Source: an uncultured virus (IMG/VR IMGVR_UViG_3300021400_004107) (lineage: Duplodnaviria; Heunggongvirae; Uroviricota; Caudoviricetes). From it: a stretch of 64,000 nt of DNA. This document shows positions 22,660-47,462 of this stretch, one piece after another (position 1 is the stretch's first letter; every line of letters starts with the position of its first letter). Below the pieces are notes generated by a model that made no database searches, was not told where the DNA came from, and saw only the letters and a program-made list of their open reading frames with translations. The DNA is taken from the IMG/VR virus record IMGVR_UViG_3300021400_004107; one strand, 5' to 3'. Position numbers and translations under genes: made by a program.

Positions 22660-25089
22660 ATGCCATTTATTGCAGGAGGGTTTTATACTCCAAGCCCAAG
22701 AAGGAACACCGGATTTTCTCAGAGGCAGAACTGTGTTTTTGCAAATGAACTCAAGGAAGCGATAGACAGAGGAGACCCTGTAACTCTTGAAGGCGAACTG
22801 GTCAAGGAGCGTTTCCGCAACGACTCGACCGGTATCGCCTGCATTGTTATCAGACTTACGGGCAACTCGTCTGCAAGCGGGTACATTCCCGTGATCGGGA
22901 AAGTGGTACCTCTGTCCGACGGTGCTCGAGTATCCGCTACGGGTAAAGTTGTCAATGACCCTAAGTGGGGGCTTCAGATGCCCAAGGCGCTAATTGAGCC
23001 CGTTGTGGCCAACACCAGAGCCGGTATCGTCAAGTTCCTCGTAAATGAGGTACCGGGCTTAGGTGAGAAGAAGGCCAACAGGCTATACGATGCTTACGGC
23101 GAAGACACTCTTACCGTGCTTGCTACAGCACCCGACAGAGTAGCCGAAGAAATCCGCGGCATATCTCCTGCGCTCGCGGAGAATATCAGCCGCGCCGCTG
23201 CTATTCAGACCCGTACCGTCAACCGTGACGCGCTCCTGTTCTGCCTTAACGTCGGTCTGTCTCCTAACAACGCTATCGACATCTGTGATAAGTACGGCAG
23301 TCAGTACCGCACGGTCATCACTGCCAATCCGTATTGTCTTATCGAGGATATCCACGGTATAGGCTTCAGGAAGGCGGACGCCGTAGCCATGTCCATCGGC
23401 ATTCCTGCTGACAGCAGATTCCGTATAGGTGCGGCCATCAAAGAGGTACTTTCAGAGAACGAGAATCCCGGAAGTAACGTGTATCTGGATAAGGACGCAC
23501 TTATCTTCAGGACGTCGGCACTGTTATCTAACGGCTCCGTATCTTCTCCGGTCACTAATGAGAAGATCGCGGACGTCCTGGACGAACTCGCAAGAGAAGA
23601 AGATATCGTGTTAGAACCTGACCCCGTAACAGGAGAAACGCGCTGCTATCTGCGTGAGTCTTACGAGGTGGAGAAGTTCATCGCAACGCGCTTAATGGAT
23701 ATTTCTGACGCACCTTTGTACCGGGACTACACATCCGGTGTTGTCAATTCGAGACTTAATGACCTGGAAAGGATACTCACGAGCCAAGGCTATCCGAGCC
23801 TGGACGATGACCAGAAAGAAGCAGTCATCAGAGCGCTGTCGAACAATGTCTCAGTCATTACCGGCGGTCCCGGTGTCGGTAAGACGACTATTCTGAAGTA
23901 CATCTCCGAGTATGTAGATCGTTATGTCAGCGACAAAGTCTGGCTCTGTGCTCCGACGGGCAAGGCCGCCAAGAGAATGTCTGAGCAAGCCGGAATCAGA
24001 GCATACACGATACACCGTCTGTTCAAGACAAGCGGTAATGAGGTTCCGACTCCGTCTATCATCGGTACTAAGCGATCCGGTGTGTTTATCGTCGACGAGT
24101 CTTCGATGCTGAACGAGAGACTGATGGGATCTCTTCTTAATCACTTGGGCCCGGGTGCAAAGCTCATTCTTGTCGGGGACAAGGATCAGCTGCCGTCTAT
24201 CGGCGCAGGTCAGGTCTTGAACGATATTATCAACAGCGAGTGTGTGCCTGTGTCATTCCTTACCAAGATCCATAGACAGGCAGAGGACAGCCACGTCATT
24301 TCCTGTGCTCATGCAATTAACGAGAGAGGGTATGTCGATCTGACTTCTCAGTTTAAGGACTTCGCGTTCTGCCAGGCTAATCAGTCCAACTCCAAGGAGT
24401 CGGTCCGCATCCTGTATCAGGCGGCCTTGTCCAAGGGCTATACTACAGAGGACATCCAGGTATTAAGTCCCTGGAAGAGCGAGGATAAGAGTGAGTGTTC
24501 TGCCGACGCTCTGAACGCATTCTTACAGCCGATAGTAAATCCCGCAGCCGAGGATAAGGCCGAGTTCTCTATGCCTGACGGTAAGATCTTCAGAGAGGGT
24601 GACAAGGTCATACAGTCGGCAAACGACTATGAGATTACCTGCTATGATGCAGATGATCCCGAGGAGCCGGTAGAGAACGGTGTGTTCAACGGCGAGACCG
24701 GAACTATAACCGAGATCTCCGACGAGGACGGCTGTATCTATGTCAACTACGGCGATCGTATCGCTGCGTATGACTTCGCCAATTTGAATGACTTGAAGCT
24801 CGCGTATGCTATGTCGATACATAAGTCCCAGGGCTCTGAGTATAAACTCATAATCCTGCCTGTAACCAGAGGCGGCGGCGGAGACTTCTATACCCGTAAC
24901 ATGCTTTACACGGCCGTTACCCGTGCGTCCAAGACAGTCATACTGCTCGGCGATGCTCAGTATTTTAGAAGCATGGCCAGAAACGCATCTGCGTCTAAGC
25001 GTAAGACGGCTCTTGACGAGAAGATCCGCGCTGAGATCTCTCGCAGGATCGGCTCTTCAGGCTTGAATTTTACGCCCAATGGGCTATAA
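22660..25089 (+). CDS. recD2: RecD2/TraA-like SF1B helicase
   Basis: HhH region, NPY.L..DI.GIGF..AD, GGPGVGKT, DESSM, GD.DQLPS.GAG, AYAMSIHKSQGSEY, YTAVTRA. Confidence 0.93.
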   Translation: MPFIAGGFYTPSPRRNTGFSQRQNCVFANELKEAIDRGDPVTLEGELVKERFRNDSTGIACIVIRLTGNSSASGYIPVIGKVVPLSDGARVSATGKVVNDPKWGLQMPKALIEPVVANTRAGIVKFLVNEVPGLGEKKANRLYDAYGEDTLTVLATAPDRVAEEIRGISPALAENISRAAAIQTRTVNRDALLFCLNVGLSPNNAIDICDKYGSQYRTVITANPYCLIEDIHGIGFRKADAVAMSIGIPADSRFRIGAAIKEVLSENENPGSNVYLDKDALIFRTSALLSNGSVSSPVTNEKIADVLDELAREEDIVLEPDPVTGETRCYLRESYEVEKFIATRLMDISDAPLYRDYTSGVVNSRLNDLERILTSQGYPSLDDDQKEAVIRALSNNVSVITGGPGVGKTTILKYISEYVDRYVSDKVWLCAPTGKAAKRMSEQAGIRAYTIHRLFKTSGNEVPTPSIIGTKRSGVFIVDESSMLNERLMGSLLNHLGPGAKLILVGDKDQLPSIGAGQVLNDIINSECVPVSFLTKIHRQAEDSHVISCAHAINERGYVDLTSQFKDFAFCQANQSNSKESVRILYQAALSKGYTTEDIQVLSPWKSEDKSECSADALNAFLQPIVNPAAEDKAEFSMPDGKIFREGDKVIQSANDYEITCYDADDPEEPVENGVFNGETGTITEISDEDGCIYVNYGDRIAAYDFANLNDLKLAYAMSIHKSQGSEYKLIILPVTRGGGGDFYTRNMLYTAVTRASKTVILLGDAQYFRSMARNASASKRKTALDEKIRAEISRRIGSSGLNFTPNGL

Positions 25090-25106: not shown

Positions 25107-25766
25107 ATGGACGGTCGAGATCTTATGCTGTACGAAGACGCCAGGAAACTAAATCGAGCGTTAGAACTCATGAAAGAATTGAGTTTTGAGAGCGAGCTCG
25201 GCGTTAGTCTTAAGAACTCTTTGGCGAAGATCGAAGAGAGGTTTGAGAATTGGCGCCTCTTCGATGATTTCGAGAAAGCCGGGGATTTTTACACGGAGCA
25301 TCTGCCGAGGGAAGAAGGTGTCGACTTACGTATAAAGGCACCCGAGTCTATTGAGAACAAACTGCTTCGTACCAGACTTATGCAACAAAAAGGTGTTTTC
25401 AGGCCCTTTGAAAAGACGTTAAACGATTTAATGGGTTTGAGAATCATCGTAAGTGATTACAGTTTGTTACTAGGGCTGAGTTTAGGAGACGGTTACAGAA
25501 TTGTTGATATGTCTCAAGGGAAGGCTACAGATGACGGATATCGGGGTATCCATGTTTACTACCAGCCGGATCACAAGCATTATCCGGTAGAACTACAGAT
25601 CATGACGGAACAAGACAGAATATTTAATCTCTGGCTTCACGAATATACATACAAGATCCAAGGCAGAGAAGACGTTGGCAGGCAATTAAGGAAACTTTAT
25701 GAAAAGGGTGTTATTAGGACAGACAAGGATTTTAAGGAGAGTTTAGATGTATTACTTAGTCGTTAA
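25107..25766 (+). CDS. RelA/SpoT-domain protein (small alarmone synthetase-like nucleotidyltransferase)
   Basis: RIK..ESI..K, ND..G.RII, GYRGIH, ELQI.T motifs. Confidence 0.75.
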   Translation: MDGRDLMLYEDARKLNRALELMKELSFESELGVSLKNSLAKIEERFENWRLFDDFEKAGDFYTEHLPREEGVDLRIKAPESIENKLLRTRLMQQKGVFRPFEKTLNDLMGLRIIVSDYSLLLGLSLGDGYRIVDMSQGKATDDGYRGIHVYYQPDHKHYPVELQIMTEQDRIFNLWLHEYTYKIQGREDVGRQLRKLYEKGVIRTDKDFKESLDVLLSR

Positions 25767-26362: not shown

Positions 26363-26499
26363 CTTCTCCTCGAATAAGGGAGGATGTTTTATTTCATACA
26401 CCTTTATTACAGGCAAAGCGTGAACTTGCATTGCCCTTGAAAAAACTTGCCCAGTGGGCTATATTATAAGTAAGAAAGATTACAGGAGATGTTTTCGAG

Positions 26500-26763
26500 A
26501 TGAAGGCTCTGTTTGAACAACTGGTAGAAAAGCTCAAGGCTCTCGGCTGCACCGAAGAAGAAGTCGGTGTGTTCTCCGAGGGTTTCGCGAAGCGCTGGGA
26601 ATCCTACGTTGCTCAGTACGGAGAGACTGAGGGCAGGAGCTATGCTCGTTTTGAGTTCGAGTCGTTGCAGGTAGAATTGTTGCAGCTCGAACGTGCCGGA
26701 GTCATCTCCCGTAGACAGCGTGAACAGCTCGAGAACTTTGTTTGGGAGGGTATTTCCGCATGA
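26500..26763 (+). CDS. Hypothetical protein
   Basis: Promoter and AGGAG RBS upstream. Confidence 0.55.
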   Translation: MKALFEQLVEKLKALGCTEEEVGVFSEGFAKRWESYVAQYGETEGRSYARFEFESLQVELLQLERAGVISRRQREQLENFVWEGISA

Positions 26764-27989
26764 ATAAGCGAATACTTAACGACAGATTGAATTTCGTAGG
26801 CGAAAATGACTATGGAGGACACGGTACAAAGACAGCTGTGCTTTACAACGGCAAGCGTTATCTTATGAAGATACCGGAACCGGTAAGAGAAACAAGCGAT
26901 TTAGACCTATCTCTGCATTCGGTTTCAGAATATATTTCCTGCCACATAGCACAATCTATGGGCCTTAATTGCCAAAATACCATCCTCGGTGAATGGACTG
27001 ACAACGACGGGCACAAGTATGATTGCTGCCTTTGTGAAGACTTTACATACGGTACTGATTATAAGTTGGCTGAAGTTAAGGCTATGTGCTATAAGTATGG
27101 CGACATGACTCAGGCAGAGCGCACTGCTCTCGAAGAAACGCCTACGTTCGAACGCATAGAGAATTTCTATAAGAGAGCCAAAAACATTGACGAAAAGGAA
27201 GCCTTGCGTGAGTTCGGCAGGATCTTCGTTCTGGATTCCTTCGTCGGCAATACGGATAGACATACAGGCAATTACGGTTTTCTGCAGAACTTGGCTACGG
27301 GTGAGATCAAGCCCTCTCCAATCTACGACTGCGGTTCTTCGCTGTTCCCTACTAAGTCCGATCAGGAGATATTGGGCAAGCCTTTGGGGTATCTTTCCGG
27401 GTCTGCGGACTCAGTTATCAGACAGCCCTCGAACGAGAAGTTGAGAATCAATTACAAAGCTTTCCTCTTCGAGGATAACCTTCCCTGGTACGTTCGTGAT
27501 GCAGTCCTGGAACTCGTCCCTCGCATCAATTTGGGCCAGATAAGAAGTTGCGTTGACTCAGCCGTGCCGTATATCTCACAGCAGAGAGCAGACATTCTGT
27601 ACAACGTGCTGGAATCCAGGTACAACGACACATTGATGCTGGCGTTCAAGAATCTCCTTACTAAGGATCTGGATTTGAACGCGGCGCAGAACGTCAACAC
27701 AAGAAGGATGCAGGAAGAGATCTTAAATCCGATTAAGAAGTATCCGATTAAGACGGATATTCCTGTAAAGTTGAATAACTCTTTCGTAAGTATCTTCCGC
27801 ATCAACGAGAATGTCGCCGTCGTTAAGAACGCGGAAGGGACACCAATCAGCTATCTCGATCTCAGACCTTCTAATAAGTATGTGATCAAGACAGCGGCAA
27901 GCCTTATGTCTAACGGTTTATTGCCCGACAGTTTCCTGTCAGGCCATCCTGCTCCTACAATACCGGGCGTCGGCGGTCTTATGAGGTGA
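26760..27989 (+). CDS. HipA-like kinase
   Basis: YGG.GTK, SEYISC.I, D..VGNTDRH.GNYG, PIYDCGSSL. Confidence 0.85.
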   Translation: MNKRILNDRLNFVGENDYGGHGTKTAVLYNGKRYLMKIPEPVRETSDLDLSLHSVSEYISCHIAQSMGLNCQNTILGEWTDNDGHKYDCCLCEDFTYGTDYKLAEVKAMCYKYGDMTQAERTALEETPTFERIENFYKRAKNIDEKEALREFGRIFVLDSFVGNTDRHTGNYGFLQNLATGEIKPSPIYDCGSSLFPTKSDQEILGKPLGYLSGSADSVIRQPSNEKLRINYKAFLFEDNLPWYVRDAVLELVPRINLGQIRSCVDSAVPYISQQRADILYNVLESRYNDTLMLAFKNLLTKDLDLNAAQNVNTRRMQEEILNPIKKYPIKTDIPVKLNNSFVSIFRINENVAVVKNAEGTPISYLDLRPSNKYVIKTAASLMSNGLLPDSFLSGHPAPTIPGVGGLMR

Positions 27990-31269: not shown

Positions 31270-31437
31270 TAAATAACAGTGTAGGAAGGTTGGCCTCCGA
31301 ACACTTAAAAATATACGTCTGTGGAGATCCAACGGCGTAGCTCAAGACTCAATCGGTTGACTCAGTTTGATCGAATGGCGAATAGCCGGTTTTGAGAGCG
31401 ATGCGGTCGTAGAAGCAGAAAATATGTGTAACTTGAG
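31270..31437 (+). ncRNA. omegaRNA(reRNA)-like scaffold / putative tracrRNA
   Basis: Hairpin AGTGT..ACACT; ACGTCTGTGGAG...GAAGCAGAAA motif like IS605-type TnpB RNAs; 3' end complementary to the repeat. Confidence 0.7.
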
Positions 31438-31984
31438 GGTCAAGACCTGATGTGTTTAACACAGTAGTCAAACACGGAATTCGCGGATCTTATCAAGACC
31501 TGATGTGTTTAACACGGTAGTCAAACGGGATGGTGCAACAAGAGATCGATCGCGTGGTCAAGGCCTGATGTGTTTAACACAGTAGTCAAACAGGCTGTTT
31601 GGTGTCGAGAGTCCTGAGGGCGGTCAAGACCTGATATGTTTAACACAGTAGTCAAACTTCTCTTTCAAGCATGGGATCAGACATTTTGGTTAAGACCTGA
31701 TGTGTTTAACACAGTTGTCAAACGAGATATGGAAGGGTAGAGGCTACGAAAAAGGTCAAGACCTGATGTGTTTAACACAGGAGTCAAACGAGATATGGAA
31801 GGGTAGAGGCTACGAAAAAGGTCAAGACCTGATGTGTTTAACACAGGAGTCAAACATATATGCAAGTCCTGCTCCTAGCAGGCGAGGTCAAGACCTGATG
31901 TGTTTAACACAGTAGTCAAACTTTCGTTATAATCAATATAGCGTCTTTTTGGTCGAGACCTGATGTGTTTAACAGTAGTCAAAC
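31438..31984 (+). CRISPR. CRISPR array: 9 repeats (consensus GGTCAAGACCTGATGTGTTTAACACAGTAGTCAAAC), 8 spacers (17,29,30,30,30,30,30,29 nt); divergent 10th repeat at 32014-32049
   Basis: Repeats start at 31438, 31491, 31556, 31622, 31688, 31754, 31820, 31886, 31951. Confidence 0.96.
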
Positions 31985-32135
31985 GAGAGAAACTCCTTTG
32001 AGGAAGCATGTGAGTTTGAGAACTGGTGGCTTTTGCATTGTGACCAAACGTCACACAGTATAACCATTGGTAAGGGGGGTATAAAATTACCCGTTCGCCG
32101 AAAAATATAACTGCTATGACAAGGGAAACAAAGAT

Positions 32136-32891
32136 ATGAACGTATTAGTCATACCCGATTCGCACTTGAGAGCCTGGATGTTCGACAGCGCAGACAAAAT
32201 AATTCAGCAGCATAAGCCCGATAAGGTCGTTGTGCTTGGGGACCTGGTAGATGACTGGGACCAGCAGCGCTGCGTCGTGCTGTATCAGAAGATGATGGAC
32301 AAGTGCGTAGAATTCGCAACTAAGTACCCGGATACGGTCTGGCTCTACGGCAATCATGACATCGCCTATTTGGACGCAGCGTGTCAGTGCTCCGGACACT
32401 CCGTCTTTGCCACGGCCACAGTAGCAGAAGGTCTGAACAGAATCCAAAACGCCCTCAATGATGAGATCAGGATCGTGGCAAGGATAGACGACGTGTTCTT
32501 TTCTCATGCCGGACTTGCCGAAGTGGAATGCCAGCTGTCGAAGGAAGCGGCGAGCAGGGAAGCAGAGTGGGATCTTATAACAAAGCATTTTAATCAGATG
32601 AATTATCGTAAGCTCTGGACTGATCTGTCGCCGATCTGGTATCGTCCGAATAACAGGTTTTTGCCATATTCTGCGGGCGGATGTCTTCAGGTGGCAGGTC
32701 ATACGCCGGTCCGCATGGCAGGTCTGTTTCAAAATCTGCTTATCACAGACACGTTCTCCACGGACAGAGTGCTCAGACCATTGGGTAATCAGTATTTTAC
32801 TATGGTCGACACTAAGACACACGAGTTGATGTTCTTCGACAAGGAGGCCGGAATCGTTACAAATACCGAAGTTGTCAGCGTTATGCGATAG
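32136..32891 (+). CDS. Calcineurin-like metallophosphoesterase
   Basis: DSH, GDLVD, GNHD, SHAG, GHTP. Confidence 0.85.
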   Translation: MNVLVIPDSHLRAWMFDSADKIIQQHKPDKVVVLGDLVDDWDQQRCVVLYQKMMDKCVEFATKYPDTVWLYGNHDIAYLDAACQCSGHSVFATATVAEGLNRIQNALNDEIRIVARIDDVFFSHAGLAEVECQLSKEAASREAEWDLITKHFNQMNYRKLWTDLSPIWYRPNNRFLPYSAGGCLQVAGHTPVRMAGLFQNLLITDTFSTDRVLRPLGNQYFTMVDTKTHELMFFDKEAGIVTNTEVVSVMR

Positions 32892-34712: not shown

Positions 34713-35903
34713 ATGGCAGGGAATAAAGACTTAGGCAAGGCCAAAGATGCTAAGAAAGACGAGTTTTATACTCAATTAGAAGATATAGAGCTTGAAATGA
34801 AGCATTACAAACAGCACTTCAAAGGCAAGACTGTATTCTGTAATTGTGACGACCCATATGAAAGCAACTTCTTCAAGTATTTTGCTATGAACTTTAACTA
34901 CCTGGGTCTTAAGAAACTTATTTCGACTTGTTATGTCTCCTCGCCTGTAATGTACACTCAACTGTCATTGTTCGATGACATGGAACAGACTTTTGAGAAG
35001 CCTGCAGATCCGAATAAGAAACCATATAAAGTTGAAATCACCGAAGTTACAGACGAAAATGGCGACGGTGCGTTCGATCTGGATGATATAAAGCAGCTCC
35101 TAAAGAGTAAAAAGAATGTCTGTACTGTCTTAAAAGGTGACGGAGATTTTCGTTCTGATGAGTGTGTTGAACTCTTAAAAGAAGCGGATATTGTGGTTAC
35201 TAATCCGCCATTCAGTTTATTTCGGGAATATGTATCACTTCTGACGAAATATGGTAAGGATTTTATCATTCTTGGTAATCAGAACGCGATTAACTATAAG
35301 GAAGTTTTTCCTTTGATAAAAGCTAATAAGGTTTGGCTCGGGGCCAGTATACACAGTGGAGACAGAGAATTCCGTGTTCCTGACGATTATCCGCTGCAAG
35401 CATCGAGTTATCGTGTGGATGATGAGGGCATCAAATATATTCGGGTAAAGGGAGTGCGTTGGTTTACCACTCTTGATTACGAAGAGCGACACGAAGATTT
35501 GATCCTATATAAATCATATGCACCAGCAGAATATCCTAAATATGATAACTATGACGCTATCGAGGTAGCAAAGACCGCCGAAATCCCTTGTGATTATTAC
35601 GGTGTCATGGGGGTACCCATTACATTTATGGATAAGTACAACCCAGATCAGTTCGAAATAGTAGGCATCAGTAAGACCTGGGCGACCGATTACGAGGTAA
35701 CTAAGTCAAAAGTATATAGAAACGCTGTTCAGTATAACAAGGATGGTACAAGGACATCTGGAAACAAGGTCAATGATGGCAGCGTCATTGCCTTAACCGA
35801 AAAACCGGAAGGAACCTATTACATGGATGACGCGTCTCCGGATAGGTATCTTGTACAGGTTTATGCCCGTATATTTATTCGCAGAAAGGAGCAACCCGTA
35901 TGA
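34713..35903 (+). CDS. EcoRI-family adenine DNA methyltransferase
   Basis: AK.DEFYT, CNCDDP, GDFRS.EC, VTNPPFSLFR, MGVPITF. Confidence 0.9.
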   Translation: MAGNKDLGKAKDAKKDEFYTQLEDIELEMKHYKQHFKGKTVFCNCDDPYESNFFKYFAMNFNYLGLKKLISTCYVSSPVMYTQLSLFDDMEQTFEKPADPNKKPYKVEITEVTDENGDGAFDLDDIKQLLKSKKNVCTVLKGDGDFRSDECVELLKEADIVVTNPPFSLFREYVSLLTKYGKDFIILGNQNAINYKEVFPLIKANKVWLGASIHSGDREFRVPDDYPLQASSYRVDDEGIKYIRVKGVRWFTTLDYEERHEDLILYKSYAPAEYPKYDNYDAIEVAKTAEIPCDYYGVMGVPITFMDKYNPDQFEIVGISKTWATDYEVTKSKVYRNAVQYNKDGTRTSGNKVNDGSVIALTEKPEGTYYMDDASPDRYLVQVYARIFIRRKEQPV

Positions 35904-36991
35904 AGATCGATCTTCACGAAATTACAGTAAAAGATGTAACTGAAGGATTTAAGGATTCTGCTGAGAACGGAGTTGTGGGTTATAACGGCAAGCTCAATAT
36001 CCGCCCTGCGTTTCAGCGTGAGTTCGTCTATTCAGGCAAGCAGCGTGATGAAGTTATAAATACTGTTCGCAACGGCTTCCCCCTTAACGTGATGTATTGG
36101 GTAAAGTCTGACGACGGCAACTATGAGCTCCTGGACGGCCAGCAGCGCACGTTATCCATCTGCCAGTATGTAAACGGCGATTTCTCTCTTAACAGCAAAT
36201 ACTTCCATAACCTGACACAGACTGAGAAAGACCAGATCCTGAACTACAAGCTCATGATCTACATCTGTGAGGGCAATGACAAAGAGAAACTCGACTGGTT
36301 CAAGATCATAAATATCGCCGGCGAAGAGCTGACAGCTCAGGAGCTCCGCAACGCAATCTACACAGGTCCGTTCATCTCCGATGCCAAGCGTTACTTCAGT
36401 AAGTCCGGCTGTGCAGCATATCAGATCGCAGGTGACTACATGTCCGGATCTGCTATTCGCCAGGACTACTTAGAAGCCGCCATCAGCTGGATCGCAGCCA
36501 GAGAGGATAAGTCCATCGAGGACTACATAGCCGAGCACCAGCACGATGCCAATGCCAACGCGCTCTGGCTCTATTTCCAGCAGGTCATAAGCTGGGTCAA
36601 AGTCGTGTTCCCGAAGTACCGTAAGGAGATGAAAGGCTTACCTTGGGGCATCTATTTCAATAAGTATGGTGCTAATTCCTATGATGCCAATGTCCTTGAA
36701 GAGCGCATTGTCGAGCTTATGGAGGATGAAGAAGTTACCAGCAACAAGGGTATCTATGAGTATCTGCTCTCGGGTAACGAGAAGACTCTGAGCCTAAGGG
36801 CTTTTCCGGATAAGATAAAGAGAGCTGTCTACGAGAAGCAGGGTGGTAAGTGCGCCTTCTGCGGGCAATCTTTCCCGATCGAGCGCATGCAGGGCGATCA
36901 TATCGTTGCCTGGAGCAACGGTGGCACTACAGTCATCGAGAACTGTCAGATGCTCTGCGCTCAGTGCAACGGTACGAAGTCCAATCACTGA
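35900..36991 (+). CDS. DUF262 + HNH restriction endonuclease
   Basis: RP.FQRE.VY, DGQQR; C-terminal C..C..DH...W..GG.T..N.Q.LC..CN. Confidence 0.88.
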   Translation: MKIDLHEITVKDVTEGFKDSAENGVVGYNGKLNIRPAFQREFVYSGKQRDEVINTVRNGFPLNVMYWVKSDDGNYELLDGQQRTLSICQYVNGDFSLNSKYFHNLTQTEKDQILNYKLMIYICEGNDKEKLDWFKIINIAGEELTAQELRNAIYTGPFISDAKRYFSKSGCAAYQIAGDYMSGSAIRQDYLEAAISWIAAREDKSIEDYIAEHQHDANANALWLYFQQVISWVKVVFPKYRKEMKGLPWGIYFNKYGANSYDANVLEERIVELMEDEEVTSNKGIYEYLLSGNEKTLSLRAFPDKIKRAVYEKQGGKCAFCGQSFPIERMQGDHIVAWSNGGTTVIENCQMLCAQCNGTKSNH

Positions 36992-37296: not shown

Positions 37297-38502
37297 ATGA
37301 CAATCGATAAACGAGAAGGTAAGAAGGGTGTGTCTTACCGTATAAGGGTGTACGCCGGAGCAGACGCTACAGGCAAAAAGAGGTTTTTTGTCGAGACATA
37401 CAATCCGCCTCCGGGTATGTCGGCCAGGCAGGCTTATAAGGAGGCTTATCAGATCGGGCTTGAACTTGAAAAGCGTTGCGAAAAGGGCGCTCCGGTTGAG
37501 TACGACCGCTTGACTTTCGCAGAGTTTGTGAACGGTATGTACACAGAACAGCACTTATCCAAGCTCAAGTCACGCACCAGAGCCGGATACCTGGAGATAC
37601 TTAATGCGAGGATCCTGCCGTACTTCGGCAGTATGTACCTGCGCAAGATCAAACCCGGTACTATCCGTGCGTGGCTCGACGGTCTCAAGAGATTCGACAC
37701 CAGCCCTTTCAAAGGCGAACTTACCGATACCAGCAAAGCTGATTGGCTGAGGACGTTATCTGCAGTGCTCGGTAAGGCTTACGAGTGGGAGCTCATAGAC
37801 GAGAATCCCTGCCGGCGCGTCAAATCGCCTACCAAAGCTAAGATCAATGTTGTTGCATGGCAACTGGAAGACGTTAGGAAAGTTTTGACCAGTCTTGACG
37901 CTTATAAGAACATCCGCGCATGCATGTTCATACTGGTCGCATTGAACTCGGGACTTCGTGAAGGCGAACTTGCGGGACTGCAATGGTCTGACTTTGATTT
38001 TGAGGATAATAAGTTCTCTGTCAACCGTACGATCCACTACGAAAAGGGAGGCTTGGTTGTCGATACTCCTAAGACTCAACATGGCTATAGAGACATTCCG
38101 TTCAGTGACGCTTTGAAAGACAAACTCCTGCAATATAAGATCTGGCAAGACGAACAGATAGAAAAGCTCGGCGACCGGTATTTGGGGAATCCTGGCCTTA
38201 ATGCCAATGTCTTTATGGCCAAAAACGGAAAACCCGTCTATGATACTACATTTCGCAAGTGGCTCAGGGATTACTGTGAGTGGTGTGGCGTGCCGAGGAT
38301 CCCTGTCCATGCTTTGAGACATACCTTCGCTTCCGTGCTTATAGCCAACAATGTCGATGCCAGAACAGCTGCGGATCTTCTGGGTCACGCGTCGGCGTCT
38401 CTGGTCCTTGACGTGTATGCAAATCCGCAGGACGAAGCCAAGAAAAGAGCTGTTAAAAAATTAGACGACGTGTATAATAATTCAGACAGCAAAAAGCCGT
38501 AA
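37297..38502 (+). CDS. Tyrosine integrase
   Basis: GLREGE..GL.W.D, PKT, HALRHT, LLGH, Y catalytic pattern; N-terminal arm-binding region. Confidence 0.95.
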   Translation: MTIDKREGKKGVSYRIRVYAGADATGKKRFFVETYNPPPGMSARQAYKEAYQIGLELEKRCEKGAPVEYDRLTFAEFVNGMYTEQHLSKLKSRTRAGYLEILNARILPYFGSMYLRKIKPGTIRAWLDGLKRFDTSPFKGELTDTSKADWLRTLSAVLGKAYEWELIDENPCRRVKSPTKAKINVVAWQLEDVRKVLTSLDAYKNIRACMFILVALNSGLREGELAGLQWSDFDFEDNKFSVNRTIHYEKGGLVVDTPKTQHGYRDIPFSDALKDKLLQYKIWQDEQIEKLGDRYLGNPGLNANVFMAKNGKPVYDTTFRKWLRDYCEWCGVPRIPVHALRHTFASVLIANNVDARTAADLLGHASASLVLDVYANPQDEAKKRAVKKLDDVYNNSDSKKP

Positions 38503-42477: not shown

Positions 42478-42571
42478 TGGCGTCGACTGCGGGACTTGAA
42501 CCCACACATCCTGCTTAAGGACTACTCACGGTTTAGCAAACCGCTGCCTTACCAATTCGGCTCAAGTCGAC
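42478..42571 (-). tRNA. tRNA-Ser(GCT)
   Basis: Cloverleaf, long variable arm, encoded CCA. Confidence 0.85.
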
Positions 42572-42581
42572 ATAGCATCGA

Positions 42582-43139
42582 TCATCTCGACATCCCGAGA
42601 CGCTCTGCAATCTTTTCTTCGATGTCTCTCATTATCGTATCTATCGACACCGGTTCACAGTTATGGGCGTCACAGGCCACGTTATACATGAACGGGTTGT
42701 CTTCGTAGAACTTATCCGGACTGTGGGTGTGACCGAACAGGTTGATCACGGCTCTGTCAGGATCCTTATCGTATTCTGCGGTCAGGGTCGGATAGTGACA
42801 AAGAAAGAACTGGTGCTTACGGATCTTTAGCAGCTGTGCATAGCTGATCTCAACGATATTCGGCAGCTCAGAGTAAAGTTCGAGCTTAGCCGGGGTGTCG
42901 TGGTTGCCGGCAATCAGATGGATCTTTCCCGGCAGTGCGGCTGCCGTATTCTTAATAGATTCTACGTCAGAGCCCAGGAACATATCACCTAAGACATATA
43001 CATCGTCGTCCGGCTTGATCATCTTCTTCCAGTTTCTGAGGATCTTCTCATTCATTTGCTCAACAGAGTTGCATCCGCGCGGGGCATAGACAAATTCCCG
43101 GTCATGATTCAAATGCATGTCGCTTATAAAATAGATCAT
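42582..43139 (-). CDS. Calcineurin-like phosphoesterase embedded in the tRNA array
   Basis: SDMH..H, LGD, GNHD, CHYP, GHTH. Confidence 0.85.
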   Translation of the reverse strand: MIYFISDMHLNHDREFVYAPRGCNSVEQMNEKILRNWKKMIKPDDDVYVLGDMFLGSDVESIKNTAAALPGKIHLIAGNHDTPAKLELYSELPNIVEISYAQLLKIRKHQFFLCHYPTLTAEYDKDPDRAVINLFGHTHSPDKFYEDNPFMYNVACDAHNCEPVSIDTIMRDIEEKIAERLGMSR

Positions 43140-43171
43140 TTTTCATATTTCCTTTTCTATAGTGTAGTGAT

Positions 43172-43247
43172 TGGCACCCGCACAGGGACTTGAACCCCGA
43201 ACTTCTGAGTCAGAGTCAGATACGTTACCGCTTACGCCATACGGGTA
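43172..43247 (-). tRNA. tRNA-Gln(CTG)
   Basis: Cloverleaf, CCA. Confidence 0.9.
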
Positions 43248-43258
43248 TGAAATGAAAA

Positions 43259-43330
43259 GTGAGCAAACAGGATTCGAACCTGTACCCCCGGCCGTCACTC
43301 GTGTGTGCTTCCGATTACACCATTGCTCAA
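43259..43330 (-). pseudogene. Degenerate tRNA (acceptor, D and T arms present; anticodon arm unpaired; no CCA)
   Basis: GAGCAA/TTGCTC acceptor, CAGGTTCGAATCCTG T arm. Confidence 0.55.
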
Positions 43331-43425
43331 GATACTTATCGGTGTTACATTCTCTTCTTCAGATCATTCCGGACTTCACCTCGGTCAACAATATATCCTT
43401 GACTTTCTCCTCTTTACTTTTCAAA

Positions 43426-43514
43426 TGGCGCTACAGACAGGACTCGAACCTGCATGTCCCGCTAAGGACTGCCTGCTCTCCAAGCAGGTGCTCCACCAAT
43501 TGAGCGACTGCAGC
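43426..43514 (-). tRNA. tRNA-Ser(GGA)
   Basis: Cloverleaf, CCA. Confidence 0.9.
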
Positions 43515-43519
43515 GTGTT

Positions 43520-43604
43520 TGGCGCCGTGCACAGGACTCGAACCTGCAAACCGTTTCCGGTCAAATGCTTTCAAAACACCTTCCTCACCACCCGGACACA
43601 CGGC
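43520..43604 (-). tRNA. tRNA-Ser(TGA)
   Basis: Cloverleaf, CCA. Confidence 0.85.
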
Positions 43605-43608
43605 GTAT

Positions 43609-43684
43609 TGGGGCTCACAGTCGGGATCGAACCGACGACTTCATCCTTACCATGGATGTACTCTGCCTGCTGAGTTATGCGAGC
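43609..43684 (-). tRNA. tRNA-Thr(GGT)
   Basis: Cloverleaf, CCA. Confidence 0.9.
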
Positions 43685-43688
43685 TTAT

Positions 43689-43774
43689 TGGCGACAGACA
43701 GAGGTGTCGATCCTCATCCTTTTGAGACCACTTGTTTTCGAAACAAGGTCAGGAGCCGTCCTGATTTATCTGTC
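43689..43774 (-). tRNA. tRNA-Ser(CGA)
   Basis: Cloverleaf, CCA. Confidence 0.8.
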
Positions 43775-43776
43775 AT

Positions 43777-43850
43777 TGGCTGCTCTTGAAAGAATCGAAC
43801 TTTCTCCTAAGGTGTCAAAGGCCCCGGCGCTACCATTACGCTAAAGAGCA
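43777..43850 (-). tRNA. tRNA-Gln(TTG)
   Basis: Cloverleaf, CCA. Confidence 0.85.
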
Positions 43851-43854
43851 ATAT

Positions 43855-43930
43855 TGGTGATCCCGCAGGGACTCGAACCCTGAGCTGTTCGGTTCGTAGC
43901 CGAGTAGTCTTCCAGTTGGCTTACAGGACC
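43855..43930 (-). tRNA. tRNA-Arg(ACG)
   Basis: Cloverleaf, CCA. Confidence 0.88.
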
Positions 43931-43933
43931 ATT

Positions 43934-44007
43934 TGGAGCGTCTCGTGAGAGTTGAACTCACAGTAAACGGTTTTGCAGACCGATCGCCTTCCGCAGACAA
44001 GAGACGC
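43934..44007 (-). tRNA. tRNA-Cys(GCA)
   Basis: Cloverleaf, CCA. Confidence 0.82.
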
Positions 44008-44012
44008 ATAAG

Positions 44013-44088
44013 TGGTTGGAACACAAGGACTCGAACCTTGAACCGATCGGATATAAGCCGACTGCTCTGCCAGTTGCGCTATGTTCCA
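44013..44088 (-). tRNA. tRNA-Ile(TAT)
   Basis: Cloverleaf, loop CT-TAT-AT, CCA. Confidence 0.88.
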
Positions 44089-44092
44089 GTGT

Positions 44093-44166
44093 TGGTTGGT
44101 ATGACAGGAATCGGACCTGTATTAACCGCGTATCAGACGGTCTTCCTACCATTGAAAGACATACCA
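44093..44166 (-). tRNA. tRNA-Ile(GAT)
   Basis: Cloverleaf, CCA. Confidence 0.85.
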
Positions 44167-44170
44167 GTGT

Positions 44171-44257
44171 TGGTGCCGCCTGAGGGTATCGAACCCACTC
44201 GAGTCTGATGACAGCGGATTTACAGTCCGCTCCGCCTCCTTAACGGGTTACGACGGC
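44171..44257 (-). tRNA. tRNA-Tyr(GTA)
   Basis: Cloverleaf, long variable arm, CCA. Confidence 0.88.
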
Positions 44258-44264
44258 ATATGTT

Positions 44265-44409
44265 AAGCCAAGCAAGATTTGCACTTGCACCTCCGACTCC
44301 ACGCCGGTAGTCTTTGTCGCGGTTAATTACTCCGCCGAGACCGTTCCGGACGCCGCATGCTACGCGCGCTTGATGCTTTGTTCGGACGAGTCCTTTAACA
44401 TATTGGCTT
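44265..44409 (-). ncRNA. tRNA-like RNA with expanded interior
   Basis: AAGCCAA/TTGGCTT acceptor-like stem, GCAAG-TGCAAAT-CTTGC T arm. Confidence 0.55.
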
Positions 44410-44410
44410 C

Positions 44411-44487
44411 TGGACCGTCATAAGGGATTCGAACCCTCTCCCTCTGCTTGGAAGGCAGACATGCTAAGCCGTTGACACCAATGACGG
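44411..44487 (-). tRNA. tRNA-Gly(TCC)
   Basis: Cloverleaf, CCA. Confidence 0.88.
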
Positions 44488-44664
44488 ATAAGGTGCGAGG
44501 CTCAACCCTCGCTTGCAGGGTATATCCCTGGAGTTCCCCGACTTGAAGTATCGGGTGATGGACCTCTTCTCGGTATTATCGTTGTGACCTACGCCTTCGG
44601 GCGGGCTGGTAAGAAGCAATCAAGTGCCCCGAATATTTGGTTAGGAACCGAGTCCGGCCACTGT

Positions 44665-44739
44665 TGGGAGGAGGTAAGAGTATCGATCTCTTGCTTGCAG
44701 TGCCACAAACTGCCGTGCTGCCATTACACTAACGACCTC
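44665..44739 (-). tRNA. tRNA-His(GTG)
   Basis: Cloverleaf with imperfect acceptor, CCA. Confidence 0.75.
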
Positions 44740-44743
44740 ATGT

Positions 44744-44816
44744 TGGTTGCGGAGCCGGGAGTCGAACCCGGAAGGTCCGGCTTATGAGGCCGGCTTGGTC
44801 GCCGTACCTCTCCGCA
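44744..44816 (-). tRNA. tRNA-Met(CAT), initiator-like
   Basis: Cloverleaf, CCA. Confidence 0.82.
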
Positions 44817-44820
44817 ATAT

Positions 44821-44895
44821 TGGCACCGGCACGAGGAATCGAACCCCGGATTTCGGTTTTGGAGACCGTTGTGTTACCACTAGCACTATACCGAT
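44821..44895 (-). tRNA. tRNA-Trp(CCA)
   Basis: Cloverleaf, CCA. Confidence 0.88.
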
Positions 44896-44899
44896 ATGT

Positions 44900-44975
44900 T
44901 GGAGCAAGCAACGGGATTTGAACCCGTGTATCCGACTTGGCAAGCCGGTGTAATAGGCCACTATACGATACCTGC
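44900..44975 (-). tRNA. tRNA-Gly(GCC)
   Basis: Cloverleaf, CCA. Confidence 0.88.
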
Positions 44976-44978
44976 ATC

Positions 44979-45055
44979 TGGTACCCGCAGAGGGGATCGA
45001 ACCCCCGACCTTGTGCTTGTAAGGCACCTGCTCTCCGCTGCTGAGCTATACGGGT
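44979..45055 (-). tRNA. tRNA-Val(TAC)
   Basis: Cloverleaf, CCA. Confidence 0.9.
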
Positions 45056-45185
45056 AGATTTGGCAGCGTGTGCACCGTCGCGAACGGCATCGGAACTGCT
45101 AAGTCGGAAGATCTCACGTCTATTTAAGACAAGCCACCTTCCTATAAACCCTACGGTTTGCTGCACACTTTGATCCTCACTCACT

Positions 45186-45261
45186 TGGTGGACCACACGG
45201 GGATCGAACCCGCCATTTCATGCTTGCAAGGCACGCGGCACCCCATTGCGCCTTCTGGCCC
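45186..45261 (-). tRNA. tRNA-Ala(TGC)
   Basis: Cloverleaf, G3:U70, CCA. Confidence 0.88.
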
Positions 45262-45424
45262 ATATTTGCGTAGCGGAATATGTAAGCAAGGACTTATATC
45301 TCCTCGGAGAATTGTCCAAACCTGGGCTACCGGACCTACGCTATTCTTGAGCAGTTTCGTTTTACTCAAGACCTTACCCTCAGGTTTTTACATACGGGTG
45401 ACGAAACCTTCCGTATGATGCAAT

Positions 45425-45499
45425 TGGAGCTTCCCCAGGGAGTCGAACCCTGACAATCCTGCTTACAAGGCAGGCGCAGTACCGTTGTGCCAGAGAAGC
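45425..45499 (-). tRNA. tRNA-Thr(TGT)
   Basis: Cloverleaf, CCA. Confidence 0.88.
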
Positions 45500-45669
45500 G
45501 TATTGTCTCGAACAGCTCTCAGAGCTAACCGAATGCTCATTCGTCTGTATTTCACCGGATTCGAGATCCGATCCGTCTTACCTGTATCGCTCGGTAAGTC
45601 GCAGGTTACGATTACGGCCTGCTCTCGGTTCTTGTCGCATCGGTCATGCAGTAGGTGATACAACCTTAG

Positions 45670-45789
45670 TGGTGTGGGAGGCCGGACACGACTCCGACCA
45701 TGCCCTCCGGGACACATGTGCACTTAATCCCGTACGAGCGCCAGGGGTACCGATGCCCCGGCTGCGTGTGCTTCTTGCATACTCCCGAC
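45670..45789 (-). ncRNA. tRNA-like RNA with extra arm, ends in CCA
   Basis: GGGAG/CTCCC acceptor, T-like arm, two internal hairpins. Confidence 0.5.
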
Positions 45790-45866
45790 TGGTGTCCGAC
45801 AAGGGCCTCGAACCCTCAAGAAACTGATTTTGAGTCAGTCATGTCTGCCAATTGCATCAATCGGAC
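45790..45866 (-). tRNA. tRNA-Leu(CAA), short variable region
   Basis: Cloverleaf, CCA. Confidence 0.85.
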
Positions 45867-45869
45867 ATG

Positions 45870-45945
45870 TGGTACTCCGACAGCGGCTCGAACGCTGAAC
45901 CGACACTTTAGAAGAGTGTTGCACTTCCAGTTGTGCTACCGGAGC
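45870..45945 (-). tRNA. tRNA-Arg(TCT)
   Basis: Cloverleaf, CCA. Confidence 0.88.
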
Positions 45946-46034
45946 ATTTATGTGCGGTTAAAGTCCCGCAGACTGCACATCCGGTTTAATTTGGCGCCGG
46001 CAGGGACCGTATTATTTTGCTCTAAACCTGCCAC

Positions 46035-46113
46035 TGGTACCCGAGGAGGGAGTCGAACCCTCAAAAGACCCGGATCCTTAGTCCGGCGCATACGCCAATT
46101 CTGCTACACGGGC
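46035..46113 (-). tRNA. tRNA-Leu(AAG), short variable region
   Basis: Cloverleaf, loop CT-AAG-GA, CCA. Confidence 0.85.
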
Positions 46114-46118
46114 ATATA

Positions 46119-46194
46119 TGGTGCTTGCTATCGGATTCGAACCGATACAACGCGAGGTTTAAGCTCGCTGACTCTGCCGTTGGCCTAAGCAAGC
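46119..46194 (-). tRNA. tRNA-Leu(TAA), short variable region
   Basis: Cloverleaf, CCA. Confidence 0.85.
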
Positions 46195-46197
46195 ATT

Positions 46198-46273
46198 TGG
46201 TATCCCTGAGAGGATTCGAACCTCCAACTTTACGGTTCTGAGCCGTCTGCGTCTGCCGTTCCGCCACAAGGAT
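46198..46273 (-). tRNA. tRNA-Leu(CAG), short variable region
   Basis: Cloverleaf, CCA. Confidence 0.85.
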
Positions 46274-46280
46274 ATATTAG

Positions 46281-46342
46281 GACCGCGTGCTCTCCGTTAC
46301 ACTAATCAAGGGCGCCTTCCTGAGTCGAACAGGTCTTCGGTC
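46281..46342 (-). ncRNA. Circularly permuted tRNA mimic (YrlA/Y-RNA-like topology)
   Basis: GACCG - T arm CCTG-TTCGACT-CAGG - closed acceptor AAGG/CCTT - D arm GTGT-AACGGAGA-GCAC - CGGTC. Confidence 0.7.
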
Positions 46343-46417
46343 TGGTGACGCTTCAGGGAGTTGAACCCTGCTTCACGGGCTGAGAACCCGTTTTCCTGGC
46401 CGATAGAAGAAAGCGCC
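46343..46417 (-). tRNA. tRNA-Glu(CTC)
   Basis: Cloverleaf, CCA. Confidence 0.88.
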
Positions 46418-46420
46418 ATG

Positions 46421-46499
46421 TGGTGACGTGTGCGGGATTTGAACCCGGCGAATACCGCCTTGAAAGGGCGGCGAGTTAAACCAACTTCTCCAACACGCC
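46421..46499 (-). tRNA. tRNA-Glu(TTC)
   Basis: Cloverleaf, CCA. Confidence 0.88.
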
Positions 46500-46608
46500 A
46501 TTTTTTGTTTGCGCTGATCGCAGACCCGGCAATTCATGGATTTGCTTTTAAGTCTGTTGACATAATGGCCACTTTTGTCTTCTCACTGTAAGTGAACGAC
46601 CCCGCATT

Positions 46609-46684
46609 TGGTCCGAGTAGCAGGTCTCGAACCTGCGGCTTCCTGGTCCCAGGCCAGGCACTCTTCCAACTGAGCTATACCCGG
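46609..46684 (-). tRNA. tRNA-Pro(TGG)
   Basis: Cloverleaf (C at position 33), CCA. Confidence 0.88.
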
Positions 46685-46690
46685 ATATAG

Positions 46691-46796
46691 AAGGGTTTAG
46701 GTGAGCTTTCCCCCAGCTCGGACTCGAACCATTCTCTTCCGTTTCCAGAAGCGTCCCCCACGGGACCAGCCGGGCTACTTGCTGCACCATGCCCTT
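46691..46796 (-). ncRNA. Long-stem RNA with T-loop
   Basis: AAGGG..GGTG/CACC..CCCTT closing stem, three-hairpin head with GGTTCGAGTCC. Confidence 0.5.
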
Positions 46797-46872
46797 TGGC
46801 GACCACAACGAGAGTTGAACTCGTATCTTCAGCGTGACAGGCTGACATAATAAACCGTTATACCATGCGGCC
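46797..46872 (-). tRNA. tRNA-Asp(GTC)
   Basis: Cloverleaf, CCA. Confidence 0.88.
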
Positions 46873-46879
46873 GTATAAG

Positions 46880-46997
46880 TGGAGGGGAGCAGAGGAGTTG
46901 CACCTCATTCTACGTTATTGACCAAGTAACACACCATGCTAAACCCGTCTGTATCCTTGATAGTCTCATCAAGTCCGTTTCGGTCTTGGAACTCCCC
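46880..46997 (-). ncRNA. tRNA-like RNA with expanded interior, ends in CCA
   Basis: GGGGAGT/GCTCCCC-T-CCA acceptor, GAGG-TGCAACT-CCTC T arm. Confidence 0.6.
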
Positions 46998-46998
46998 T

Positions 46999-47074
46999 TG
47001 GTGGGCGTGATAGGTCTCGAACCTACAACCTTCCGATTAAGAGTCGGCTACTCTGCCGATTGAGTTACACACCC
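46999..47074 (-). tRNA. tRNA-Lys(CTT)
   Basis: Cloverleaf, CCA. Confidence 0.9.
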
Positions 47075-47079
47075 GTAAA

Positions 47080-47155
47080 TGGTGGGCGGTGTTGGTTTCG
47101 ATCCAACCTCCACGGGGCTTCAACCCGTTGCTTTCACCAGATTAGCTTACCGTCC
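47080..47155 (-). tRNA. tRNA-Phe(GAA)
   Basis: Cloverleaf, CCA. Confidence 0.88.
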
Positions 47156-47163
47156 ATAAGGTG

Positions 47164-47341
47164 ACGTTATTAAGTTAAGAAGTCGAGGCAAGGATTCGAA
47201 CCTTGCAGTGATATGCCGGGGCTTATCAGTGATGCAACTTACAAAGGCTGATTCAAACAGCAATACCGGCTATTATTAGGAGCATCTTATCCGCAACTCT
47301 TACACCTCGTCGAGCTACTCAACTCCTTAACTTAATGATGT
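47164..47341 (-). ncRNA. tRNA-like RNA with 24-bp terminal stem and canonical T arm
   Basis: 22 of 24 positions pair between 47164-47187 and 47318-47341; GCAAGG-TTCGAAT-CCTTGC. Confidence 0.65.
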
Positions 47342-47386
47342 TGATCCATAAGGTCCCGAATTTAAAGGCTCGGTCCCACACCTTAA

Positions 47387-47462
47387 TGGCACCCTCAGCA
47401 GGACTTGAACCTGCAACCTTTCGGTTAACAGCCGCTTGCTCTACCGATTGAGCTATAAGGGT
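47387..47462 (-). tRNA. tRNA-Asn(GTT)
   Basis: Cloverleaf, CCA; first tRNA of the array. Confidence 0.9.

Follow-up and report, generated by a model that had tools for sequence, protein, structure and literature searches.

A phage-borne tnpB gene followed by an omegaRNA-like scaffold and a small CRISPR array: a probable TranC-type transposon-CRISPR intermediate

Does the non-coding stretch that separates a phage tnpB gene from the CRISPR array behind it derive from the guide RNA of an IS605-type transposon, now divided between a tracr-like RNA and the repeats of the array? The question was raised by a 64,000-nt stretch of DNA from an uncultured gut phage (IMG/VR record IMGVR_UViG_3300021400_004107; hereafter, the window), in which a TnpB-type nuclease gene, an omegaRNA-like scaffold and a small CRISPR array follow one another on the (+) strand (Table 1). 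The stop codon of tnpB is separated from the start of the array at 31438 by 172 nt of non-coding sequence. The original prediction, which was made from the letters of the DNA, held that an omegaRNA scaffold is retained in this region and has apparently been split into a tracr-like RNA and a CRISPR repeat. A check of the sequence located the strings that it quoted where it had placed them, with TGTGT-AA-CTTGA at 31425-31436 and the repeat beginning at 31438. The idea that an omegaRNA might be split was proposed in 2023 (discussion of PMC10097598), and division of a reRNA into a tracrRNA and a crRNA has since been demonstrated for TranC (Jin et al., Cell 2025, doi 10.1016/j.cell.2025.09.004, as described in PMC13565253, PMC13639567, 10.64898/2026.03.27.714800 and 10.1101/2025.09.28.678669). 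On the evidence given below, we consider it likely that the locus is a phage-borne intermediate of the TranC type between transposon and CRISPR system, a TnpB on its way to becoming a Cas12.

Table 1 Features of the TnpB-array locus and of the gene island around it, with positions in the window.
Feature	Position	Strand	Basis or remark
TnpB-like RNA-guided nuclease gene, P0001, 466 aa	29865..31265	+	Pfam, NCBIfam, alignment, AF2 model
Start hairpin of conserved non-coding module	31278..31306	+	MFE fold
omegaRNA-like 5' module, tracr-like scaffold	31314..31421	+	Covariance models R1 and R2, family covariation, ISDra2 architecture as described in PMC10097598
Scaffold ACGTCTGTGGAG	31316-31327	+	
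Scaffold stem 1	TCTG 31318-31321 with CAGA 31416-31419	+	
Scaffold pseudoknot-strand motif GGAG	31323-31326	+	
Variable apical hairpin of scaffold	31353..31374	+	Inverted repeat
Scaffold TCGTAGAAGCAGAAA	31407-31421	+	
Scaffold GAAG (triplex region)	31412-31415	+	
Scaffold tail, candidate anti-repeat	31422..31437	+	Sequence, folds, chance tests
Repeat 1, 36 nt	31438..31473	+	Last omegaRNA hairpin and tail GTAGTCAAAC
Repeat 1 hairpin TGTGT-TTA-ACACA	31451-31463 (31451-31455 with 31459-31463, loop TTA)	+	
Spacer 1, 17 nt, candidate cis guide	31474..31490	+	
Remaining array, repeats 2-10	31491..32050	+	Period 65-66 nt
Degenerate tenth repeat	32015-32050	+	In phase
RelA_SpoT	25107-25766		Accessory, defence- or toxin-like gene of island
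HipA_C kinase	26742-27989		Island gene
C39 and M20 peptidases			Island genes
Metallophosphatase	32136-32891		Island gene
EcoRI-type adenine methylase	34713-35903		Island gene
GmrSD_N-HNH	35900-36991		Island gene
Integrase	37297-38502		At end of island 25107-38502

Matches to PHROGs across the window included a terminase large subunit, a tail protein, a sigma factor, a DNA polymerase, a primase-helicase and an integrase, which places the locus in a phage. The TnpB-array locus lies within an island of accessory, defence- or toxin-like genes, beside an integrase. Neither cas1 nor cas2 was detected among the ten flanking ORFs scanned, and scans of 22 and 10 ORFs around the locus gave no Y1 transposase (tnpA). 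The hallmarks of a mobile IS200/IS605 element, tnpA and transposon ends, were not seen here: the omegaRNA-like end continues into the array rather than into flanking DNA. The motif GCTATATTAT occurs just 5' of several island genes, including tnpB and the integrase (exact at 26458, 29816 and 32946; with one mismatch at 25083, 37256 and four more sites). Its nine matches compare with 3.3 expected, a count of nine being reached in 2 of 100 shuffles, and it may be a promoter element shared by genes of the island. A scan for promoters and terminators yielded no usable signal. Thirty-two tRNA genes that cover most amino acids are clustered at 42478-47462 on the (-) strand, an unusually large number for a phage of ~126 kb.

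The effector P0001 contains the Pfam domains HTH_OrfB_IS605, OrfB_IS605 and Cas12f1-like_TNB, all three of which are also present in each of its nearest 120 database relatives; the closest proteins (P0002-P0016) are 49-61% identical to it. With NCBIfam models, P0001 scored 299 bits for guided_TnpB, passing the cut-off of 100, 385.3 bits for IS200_TnpB, under the curated cut-off of 425, and 117.7 bits for V_cas_c2c8, far under the cut-off of 350. The PADLOC profiles for Cas12u4 and Cas12f, which carry no curated cut-offs, each gave ~193 bits. Its closest solved relatives were ISDra2 TnpB (E 8e-54) and an AI-designed nuclease in the PDB, and LaTranC matched over the C-terminal 160 amino acids only (E 4.6e-36). 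Alignment with 18 relatives revealed an intact RuvC triad, D256/E363/D446, in P0001. The triad is kept in all 19 aligned sequences, with D256 nearly invariant and E363 and D446 invariant or nearly so.

The REC region of P0001 (about residues 45-138) contains a helical insertion of ~60-85 amino acids, which forms a confident helix bundle in the AF2 model (pLDDT 85.7). Residues ~50-135 are absent from most of the 18 aligned relatives, with P0008 and P0009 also having insertions there. Residues 45-138 correspond to residues 38-68 of ISDra2 TnpB, whose REC region holds the TAM-reading residues Y52, S56 and Q80, as described in PMC10097598. The top folds retrieved with Foldseek were the TnpB structures 8h1j and 8iaz (TMt 0.79-0.80), with Cas12p, LaTranC (TMt 0.51-0.57) and Cas12f (TMt 0.55-0.59) at lower ranks and Cas12n likewise under TnpB. 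By its top matches in both sequence and fold, which are TnpBs, P0001 falls in the TnpB (IS605/IS607) lineage rather than in an established Cas12 subtype. As judged from alignment and model, it is a TnpB-like protein with an active-looking RuvC site and a predicted TnpB fold in which the REC region is enlarged.

The RNA of this lineage offers a yardstick for the non-coding stretch. The sequence [CT]TGTGGAG was found at 75 of 158 TnpB loci, lying between -150 and +300 nt relative to the point at which the TnpB match ends. Behind it there usually come GAAGCAGGAA, a hairpin whose loop is of the UUUA type and a terminal GT(T)CA[ACG], past which the copies diverge. A stricter composite omegaRNA pattern was recovered at 79 of 252 loci (58 distinct sequences). 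When 41 of these RNAs were analyzed with RNAalifold, stem 1 was recovered as CCUG/CAGG, both C:G pairs of which showed double changes to U:A, together with an inner stem in which double changes numbered 17 and 7; ten long-form omegaRNAs gave the same covariation and, in addition, the last stem. Across the TnpB family, stem 1 covaries as CCTG/CAGG, CTTG/CAAG and TCTG/CAGA, and the window has the rarer UCUG/CAGA type, which it shares with the loci L159, L161 and L164. Both the GGA in UGUGGAG and the UCA in the tail are invariant across the omegaRNA alignment, a pattern that fits the pseudoknot of the ISDra2 omegaRNA, in which bases -105 to -103 pair with -3 to -5. According to PMC10097598, that RNA also contains a stem 1 and a triple helix, and the UUUA loop of its last stem links a 'tracrRNA-like' to a 'crRNA-like' part. 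The likeness to IS605-type right-end RNAs on which the original prediction was built is therefore borne out by the frequency of [CT]TGTGGAG at TnpB loci and by TCTG/CAGA being a form of the family's stem 1. The scaffold of the window has a large insertion in its stem-1 loop.

We built two covariance models without the window, R1 from ten short-form and R2 from ten long-form omegaRNAs. The sole R2 match at E <0.01 in the 64-kb window was 31314-31471 on the (+) strand (23.4 bits, E 2e-4). It spans positions 1-123 of the 123 in the model and has its 3' end inside repeat 1, the consensus tail AgGAAGUCAA being aligned to CAGUAGUCAA of that repeat. R1 matched 31314-31443 (16.7 bits, E 0.016). Given that R1 ends at 31443 and R2 at 31471, the 3' end of the cis omegaRNA depends on the model. 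In the R2 alignment, neither the middle region nor the last hairpin is aligned, both lying in a local stretch, so that the score reflects the 5' module together with the tail. When R2 was applied to TnpB loci outside the seed, it detected an RNA at E <1e-3 in 36 of 39, with 24-116 bits, and distant gut and short forms scored 24-28 bits; the 23.4 bits of the window therefore lie at the low end of the real range. As far as sequence and family covariation can tell, the scaffold at 31314-31421 is a real homologue, beyond chance, of the 5' part of an IS605-type omegaRNA (reRNA), and both models thus place an omegaRNA-derived tracr region between effector and array. The covariance-model alignment accordingly upheld the retained scaffold of the original prediction, and the end-to-end match to the full-length model R2 speaks for its further proposal that scaffold, repeat 1 and spacer 1 form a single guide. 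With R2, no second copy of the scaffold was found in the window, and a search of Rfam matched no relevant family. Two further R1 matches, at 46592-46755 on the (-) strand, were rejected; they lie on or between tRNA genes of the cluster. In actinobacterial loci, partial R2 matches (model positions ~71-113) were seen 5' of tnpB (L138:2596-2638, L169:2601-2626 and L156:2480-2504), and these we took to be left-end hairpins that resemble the right end.

The array adjoins the effector locus and comprises nine clear repeats and a degenerate tenth. Spacers 2-9 are 29-30 nt in length and unique, save that spacers 5 and 6 are the same, and repeat 2 starts with TA rather than GG. A 26-nt repeat core gave 8 matches at <=3 mismatches, compared with 0 in 100 shuffles, and no others in the window. 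Spacers 5 (31724-31753) and 6 (31790-31819) are identical and repeats 6 and 7 share a T>G variant, which points to a recent duplication of one unit. Searches of GenBank phages, PLSDB plasmids, the 252 other loci and the window itself returned no protospacers.

Each repeat contains the hairpin UGUGU-UUA-ACACA followed by GUAGUCAAAC. At their 3' ends, family omegaRNAs have a hairpin of 6-10 bp, in most cases capped by a UUUA loop, and then a tail, for example UAGUUCAC or AGGAAGUCAA; the repeat tail GUAGUCAA is identical to the tail of L164, and two extra conserved bases (AC) extend it past the canonical omegaRNA end. The 3' module was scored with a regular expression rather than a covariance model, MAFFT alignments of the hairpins being out of register, and a loose descriptor (5-bp stem, U-rich loop and GU(U)CA within 6 nt) recovered seven of nine repeats together with 12 other sites in 128 kb (both strands). 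By this sequence likeness, each repeat is an apparent omegaRNA 3' module, made up of the last hairpin with its UUUA-type loop and a GUCAA-type tail. The resemblance of the repeat to an IS right end, also part of the original prediction, thus holds, the repeat carrying the 3' hairpin and a tail like that of the element end. The same result contradicts the claim that the terminal hairpin and the end of the element had been replaced, given that repeat 1 retains both in cis and every other repeat holds them too. Since the repeats carry the last hairpin and tail, the scaffold, repeat 1 and the 17-nt spacer can be read as a complete cis omegaRNA; the guide of ISDra2 TnpB is described as 16 nt long (PMC10097598), which is near the length of spacer 1.

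The 5' part of the repeat (positions 3-10, UCAAGACC) copies the scaffold strand CUCAAGACU (31341-31347). It is also complementary over 8 bp to scaffold GGUUUUGA (31388-31395), which itself pairs with the CUCAAGACU strand in the predicted scaffold fold. Docking of a crRNA on the scaffold by strand exchange is therefore conceivable. The 7-mer TCAAGAC common to the repeat and to scaffold 31341-31347 would be expected ~0.3 times by chance, as estimated from the lengths, and its presence is thus at about chance level.

According to the original prediction, scaffold bases 31425-31436 can pair with the repeat. TGTGT (31425-31429) lies 3 nt past GAAGCAGAAA, a position at which short-form omegaRNAs begin the 5' strand of their last stem, and CTTGA (31432-31436), which follows after AA, makes a 5-bp hairpin with TCAAG (31440-31444), the first conserved bases of repeat 1. 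Two readings are possible: UGUGU and CUUGA of the tracrRNA may pair with ACACA and UCAAG of the crRNA, or the repeat may keep its own hairpin, with CUUGA:UCAAG as the only intermolecular pairing. The best duplex of 31418-31437 with the repeat had an energy of -8.2 kcal/mol, a value also attained by 40.5% of 18,021 20-mers drawn at random from the window, and that of the whole scaffold with the repeat was -18.1 kcal/mol, compared with a mean of -18.8 over 744 random 172-nt windows, 53% of which were as good. Pairing between scaffold and repeat is therefore not clearly above chance, and by duplex energy both readings are at chance level. The geometry of the junction, which was defined only after the locus had been seen, is uncommon, being present at 711 of 127,940 positions (0.56%) for a perfect 5-bp hairpin at a fixed position and at 114 of 42,620 (0.27%) for two colinear 5-mer arms.

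Variation among the repeats and between samples also bears on the two readings. Repeat 5 (UUAAG) and repeat 9 (UCGAG) would still pair with CUUGA via G-U, two transitions that prove little, and repeat 4 is changed in the 5' strand of its own hairpin, which slightly favors the reading in which UGUGU of the tracrRNA pairs with ACACA of the repeat. In two public DNA runs (X5 and X6), 31416-31473 or 31416-31467 is identical to the window, and the tail 31425-31436 is invariant in all contigs seen. The predicted pairing is thus possible and sits at the position of the 5' strand of the last stem, and its energy is that of chance; we put the odds that this tail holds tracrRNA and crRNA together by pairing with the repeat slightly below even. 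Another candidate for the anti-repeat or pseudoknot site, 31355-31371 within the apical hairpin 31353-31374, is complementary to the 3' end of the repeat in the window only. It was rejected because the variants in X5 and X6 destroy this complementarity with repeat 1 unchanged. The apical variants are 31358 T>G, 31360 A>G, 31364 A>C, 31366 T>G and 31368 T>C; assessed by hand, three of these five changes keep or add local hairpin pairs, one is in the loop and one breaks a pair.

The stretch was present in runs of 9 studies, all gut or unspecified metagenomes, and four of these runs (X3, X9, X5 and X6) were compared. In the RNA libraries X3 and X9, which are from two studies, contigs identical to the window begin at 31304, span the border between scaffold and array and end at 31522 and 31789 in X3 and at 31729 in X9. 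Contig depths were 21 and 16 versus 4.1 for tnpB in X3, and 6.9 versus 2.7 in X9; such depths cannot rank genes, Logan contigs do not reveal strand, RNA ends or processing, and RNA libraries may contain DNA. These contigs provide a weak hint that the scaffold-array region is transcribed. The DNA runs X5 and X6 each yielded one contig over 31304-31445, differing from the window at six sites including 31411, and a second scaffold variant in an RNA library diverges after 31357. At least two natural variants of the scaffold therefore exist, which indicates the presence of related loci in gut metagenomes. The sequence from 31278 onward also recurs behind other upstream sequence in contigs of X3, X9 and X6, which suggests that 31278 is the start of the module and, again, that there are related loci. 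A different 30-nt sequence follows repeat 8 in X5 and X6 (a loose end behind 31922), so the content of the array differs between samples. Portions of the array at 31800-31883 and beyond 31968 had no contig cover in the runs. A search of IMG/VR and of metagenome and genome contigs for relatives with arrays returned, among the matches listed, only TnpBs of <=50% identity in the best segment, the match L010 being the window's own contig, and the repeat pattern gave 0 matches in IMG/VR.

We propose the following scheme for the locus. A TnpB of IS605 lineage would be followed by the 5' two-thirds of an ancestral omegaRNA, with stem 1, the pseudoknot strand and the GAAG/CAGA triplex region, and each repeat of the array would supply the missing 3' third, the last hairpin and a GUCAA-type tail that abuts the guide. 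A single transcript might begin near 31278, cover the scaffold and continue into the array. The first unit of this RNA, scaffold plus repeat 1 plus the 17-nt spacer 1, could fold into a complete cis omegaRNA. With spacers 2-9, the scaffold would instead take the part of a tracrRNA and, together with a processed crRNA, restore the omegaRNA fold, the two RNAs being held together by the pseudoknot (in which GGA of UGUGGAG pairs with UC of the tail), by the protein and probably by the tail 31425-31436. The complex would then cut DNA that matches a spacer beside a short TAM or PAM, and the phage might benefit through action against competing mobile elements. This scheme draws on the homology of scaffold and repeat tail, the regularity of the array, the intact triad, the presence in RNA libraries and the differences in spacers between samples. 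The loading of the other crRNAs by the scaffold in trans, which was also part of the original prediction, is suggested by analogy with published TranC systems, and crRNA processing, DNA cleavage and targets are likewise inferred. A more specific version, which we consider rather doubtful, is that the split has been preserved mid-way, so that one precursor would give rise to a tracrRNA for 30-nt crRNAs as well as to a complete cis omegaRNA bearing a 17-nt guide, the break lying 5' of the last hairpin rather than in its loop and the REC insertion holding the longer heteroduplex.

Given that every repeat has a complete hairpin and tail, the repeats might instead be self-sufficient condensed guides of the Cas12a or Cas12m type, with the scaffold serving the cis guide only or being a leftover. 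The repeat 5' TCAAGAC, shared with the scaffold, would then be a variant of the conserved UAAGAC motif of the family, and a condensed-and-duplicated route is one of the two that have been proposed (PMC10097598). However, the repeats have neither stem 1 nor the GAAG/CAGR triplex region nor the GGAG pseudoknot partner, which are the most conserved parts of the family and are described as being contacted by RuvC and WED (PMC10097598). The expected chance frequency of the shared 7-mer also weakens this explanation, as do the conservation of the scaffold across samples and its presence in RNA-library contigs, and we judge it improbable. Alternatively, an ordinary mobile IS605-type tnpB with its omegaRNA may have come to lie beside an unrelated orphan array of the phage that uses host Cas proteins. 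Phage-borne orphan arrays exist, and R1 ends the omegaRNA at 31443, ahead of most of repeat 1. Nevertheless, an omegaRNA-type hairpin and tail are found in the repeat itself, in the right orientation and directly abutting the scaffold, the flanking ORFs scanned include no tnpA, and the window holds no extra copy of scaffold or repeat, all of which makes such a coincidence very unlikely.

The locus might also be a relic without activity: the TnpB would be dead or domesticated and its right end amplified in tandem, with neither scaffold nor array now serving as a guide. The failure to find protospacers in the collections searched would fit such a relic, as would the lack of adaptation genes among the flanking ORFs scanned, the point changes in several repeats, the short spacer 1 and the damage to the last two repeats. 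The reading frame is nonetheless full-length, with an intact triad and a confident fold, and regular, mostly unique spacers of 29-30 nt are not a product of simple amplification. In addition, the locus is nearly unchanged in runs of several studies, with its spacers differing, and is present in RNA libraries. We therefore hold this explanation to be quite unlikely, and retain the TranC-type intermediate as the preferred reading.

TranC systems are described as combining a TnpB-lineage effector of 300-600 amino acids with a small CRISPR array and, between the two, a reRNA-derived tracrRNA of 100-200 nt, the same idea of a split RNA (PMC13565253, PMC13639567, 10.64898/2026.03.27.714800, 10.1101/2025.09.28.678669). 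The present locus has all three features by which a TranC is recognized at the sequence level: its effector is of TnpB lineage, an array adjoins it, and the tracr region derives from a reRNA. LaTranC, the sole TranC compared with P0001 by sequence and fold, is not close to it, P0001 being nearer to ISDra2 TnpB (E 8e-54, TMt 0.79) than to LaTranC (TMt 0.51-0.57). CauTranC9, an ultra-compact TranC interpreted as a phage-against-phage defence (10.64898/2026.03.27.714800), is likewise encoded by a tailed phage and has a small array (5 repeats), but by its description it lacks expanded domains and has 38-bp repeats, whereas the P0001 locus has a REC insertion and 36-nt repeats. ISDra2 TnpB (8H1J and 8EXA; PMC10097598) has the same protein core, and its omegaRNA, as described there, shares stem 1, the pseudoknot between the 5' GGA strand and U-C of the 3' tail, the last stem with a UUUA loop and the 3' position of the guide. 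In contrast to ISDra2, the window locus has no tnpA or transposon ends that were seen, its guide slot is multiplied, with 30-nt spacers, and its REC region is enlarged. A tracrRNA between effector and array is also found in Cas12f (V-F), in which repeat:anti-repeat 1 forms the pseudoknot and repeat:anti-repeat 2 the last stem (PMC10097598). A scheme like that of Cas12f splits the RNA at the loop of the last stem, whereas here the hairpin is intact in the repeat and the tail of the tracr region duplicates its 5' strand.

The concept of the split is thus already known from TranC, and a phage-borne TranC from CauTranC9; the present locus is one instance, found in nature, of the transition from transposon to CRISPR system. 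It is characterized by a complete cis omegaRNA whose first spacer is 17 nt long, by a last hairpin that is whole in each repeat and by the REC insertion in an otherwise ISDra2-like protein. It adds to the evidence for phage mini-systems inside accessory gene islands and leaves the current picture unchanged. With a compact enzyme of 466 amino acids that is close to ISDra2 TnpB, it makes the published splitting model testable, and it bears on the contacts between tracrRNA and crRNA, the coexistence of cis and trans guides and the relation of a REC insertion to longer guides. If the split is indeed preserved mid-way, a single natural enzyme would work in both transposon and CRISPR modes, with two guide lengths. 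The locus is a clean natural specimen of the split of an omegaRNA into tracrRNA and crRNA on a phage, with every ancestral RNA element recognisable by homology.
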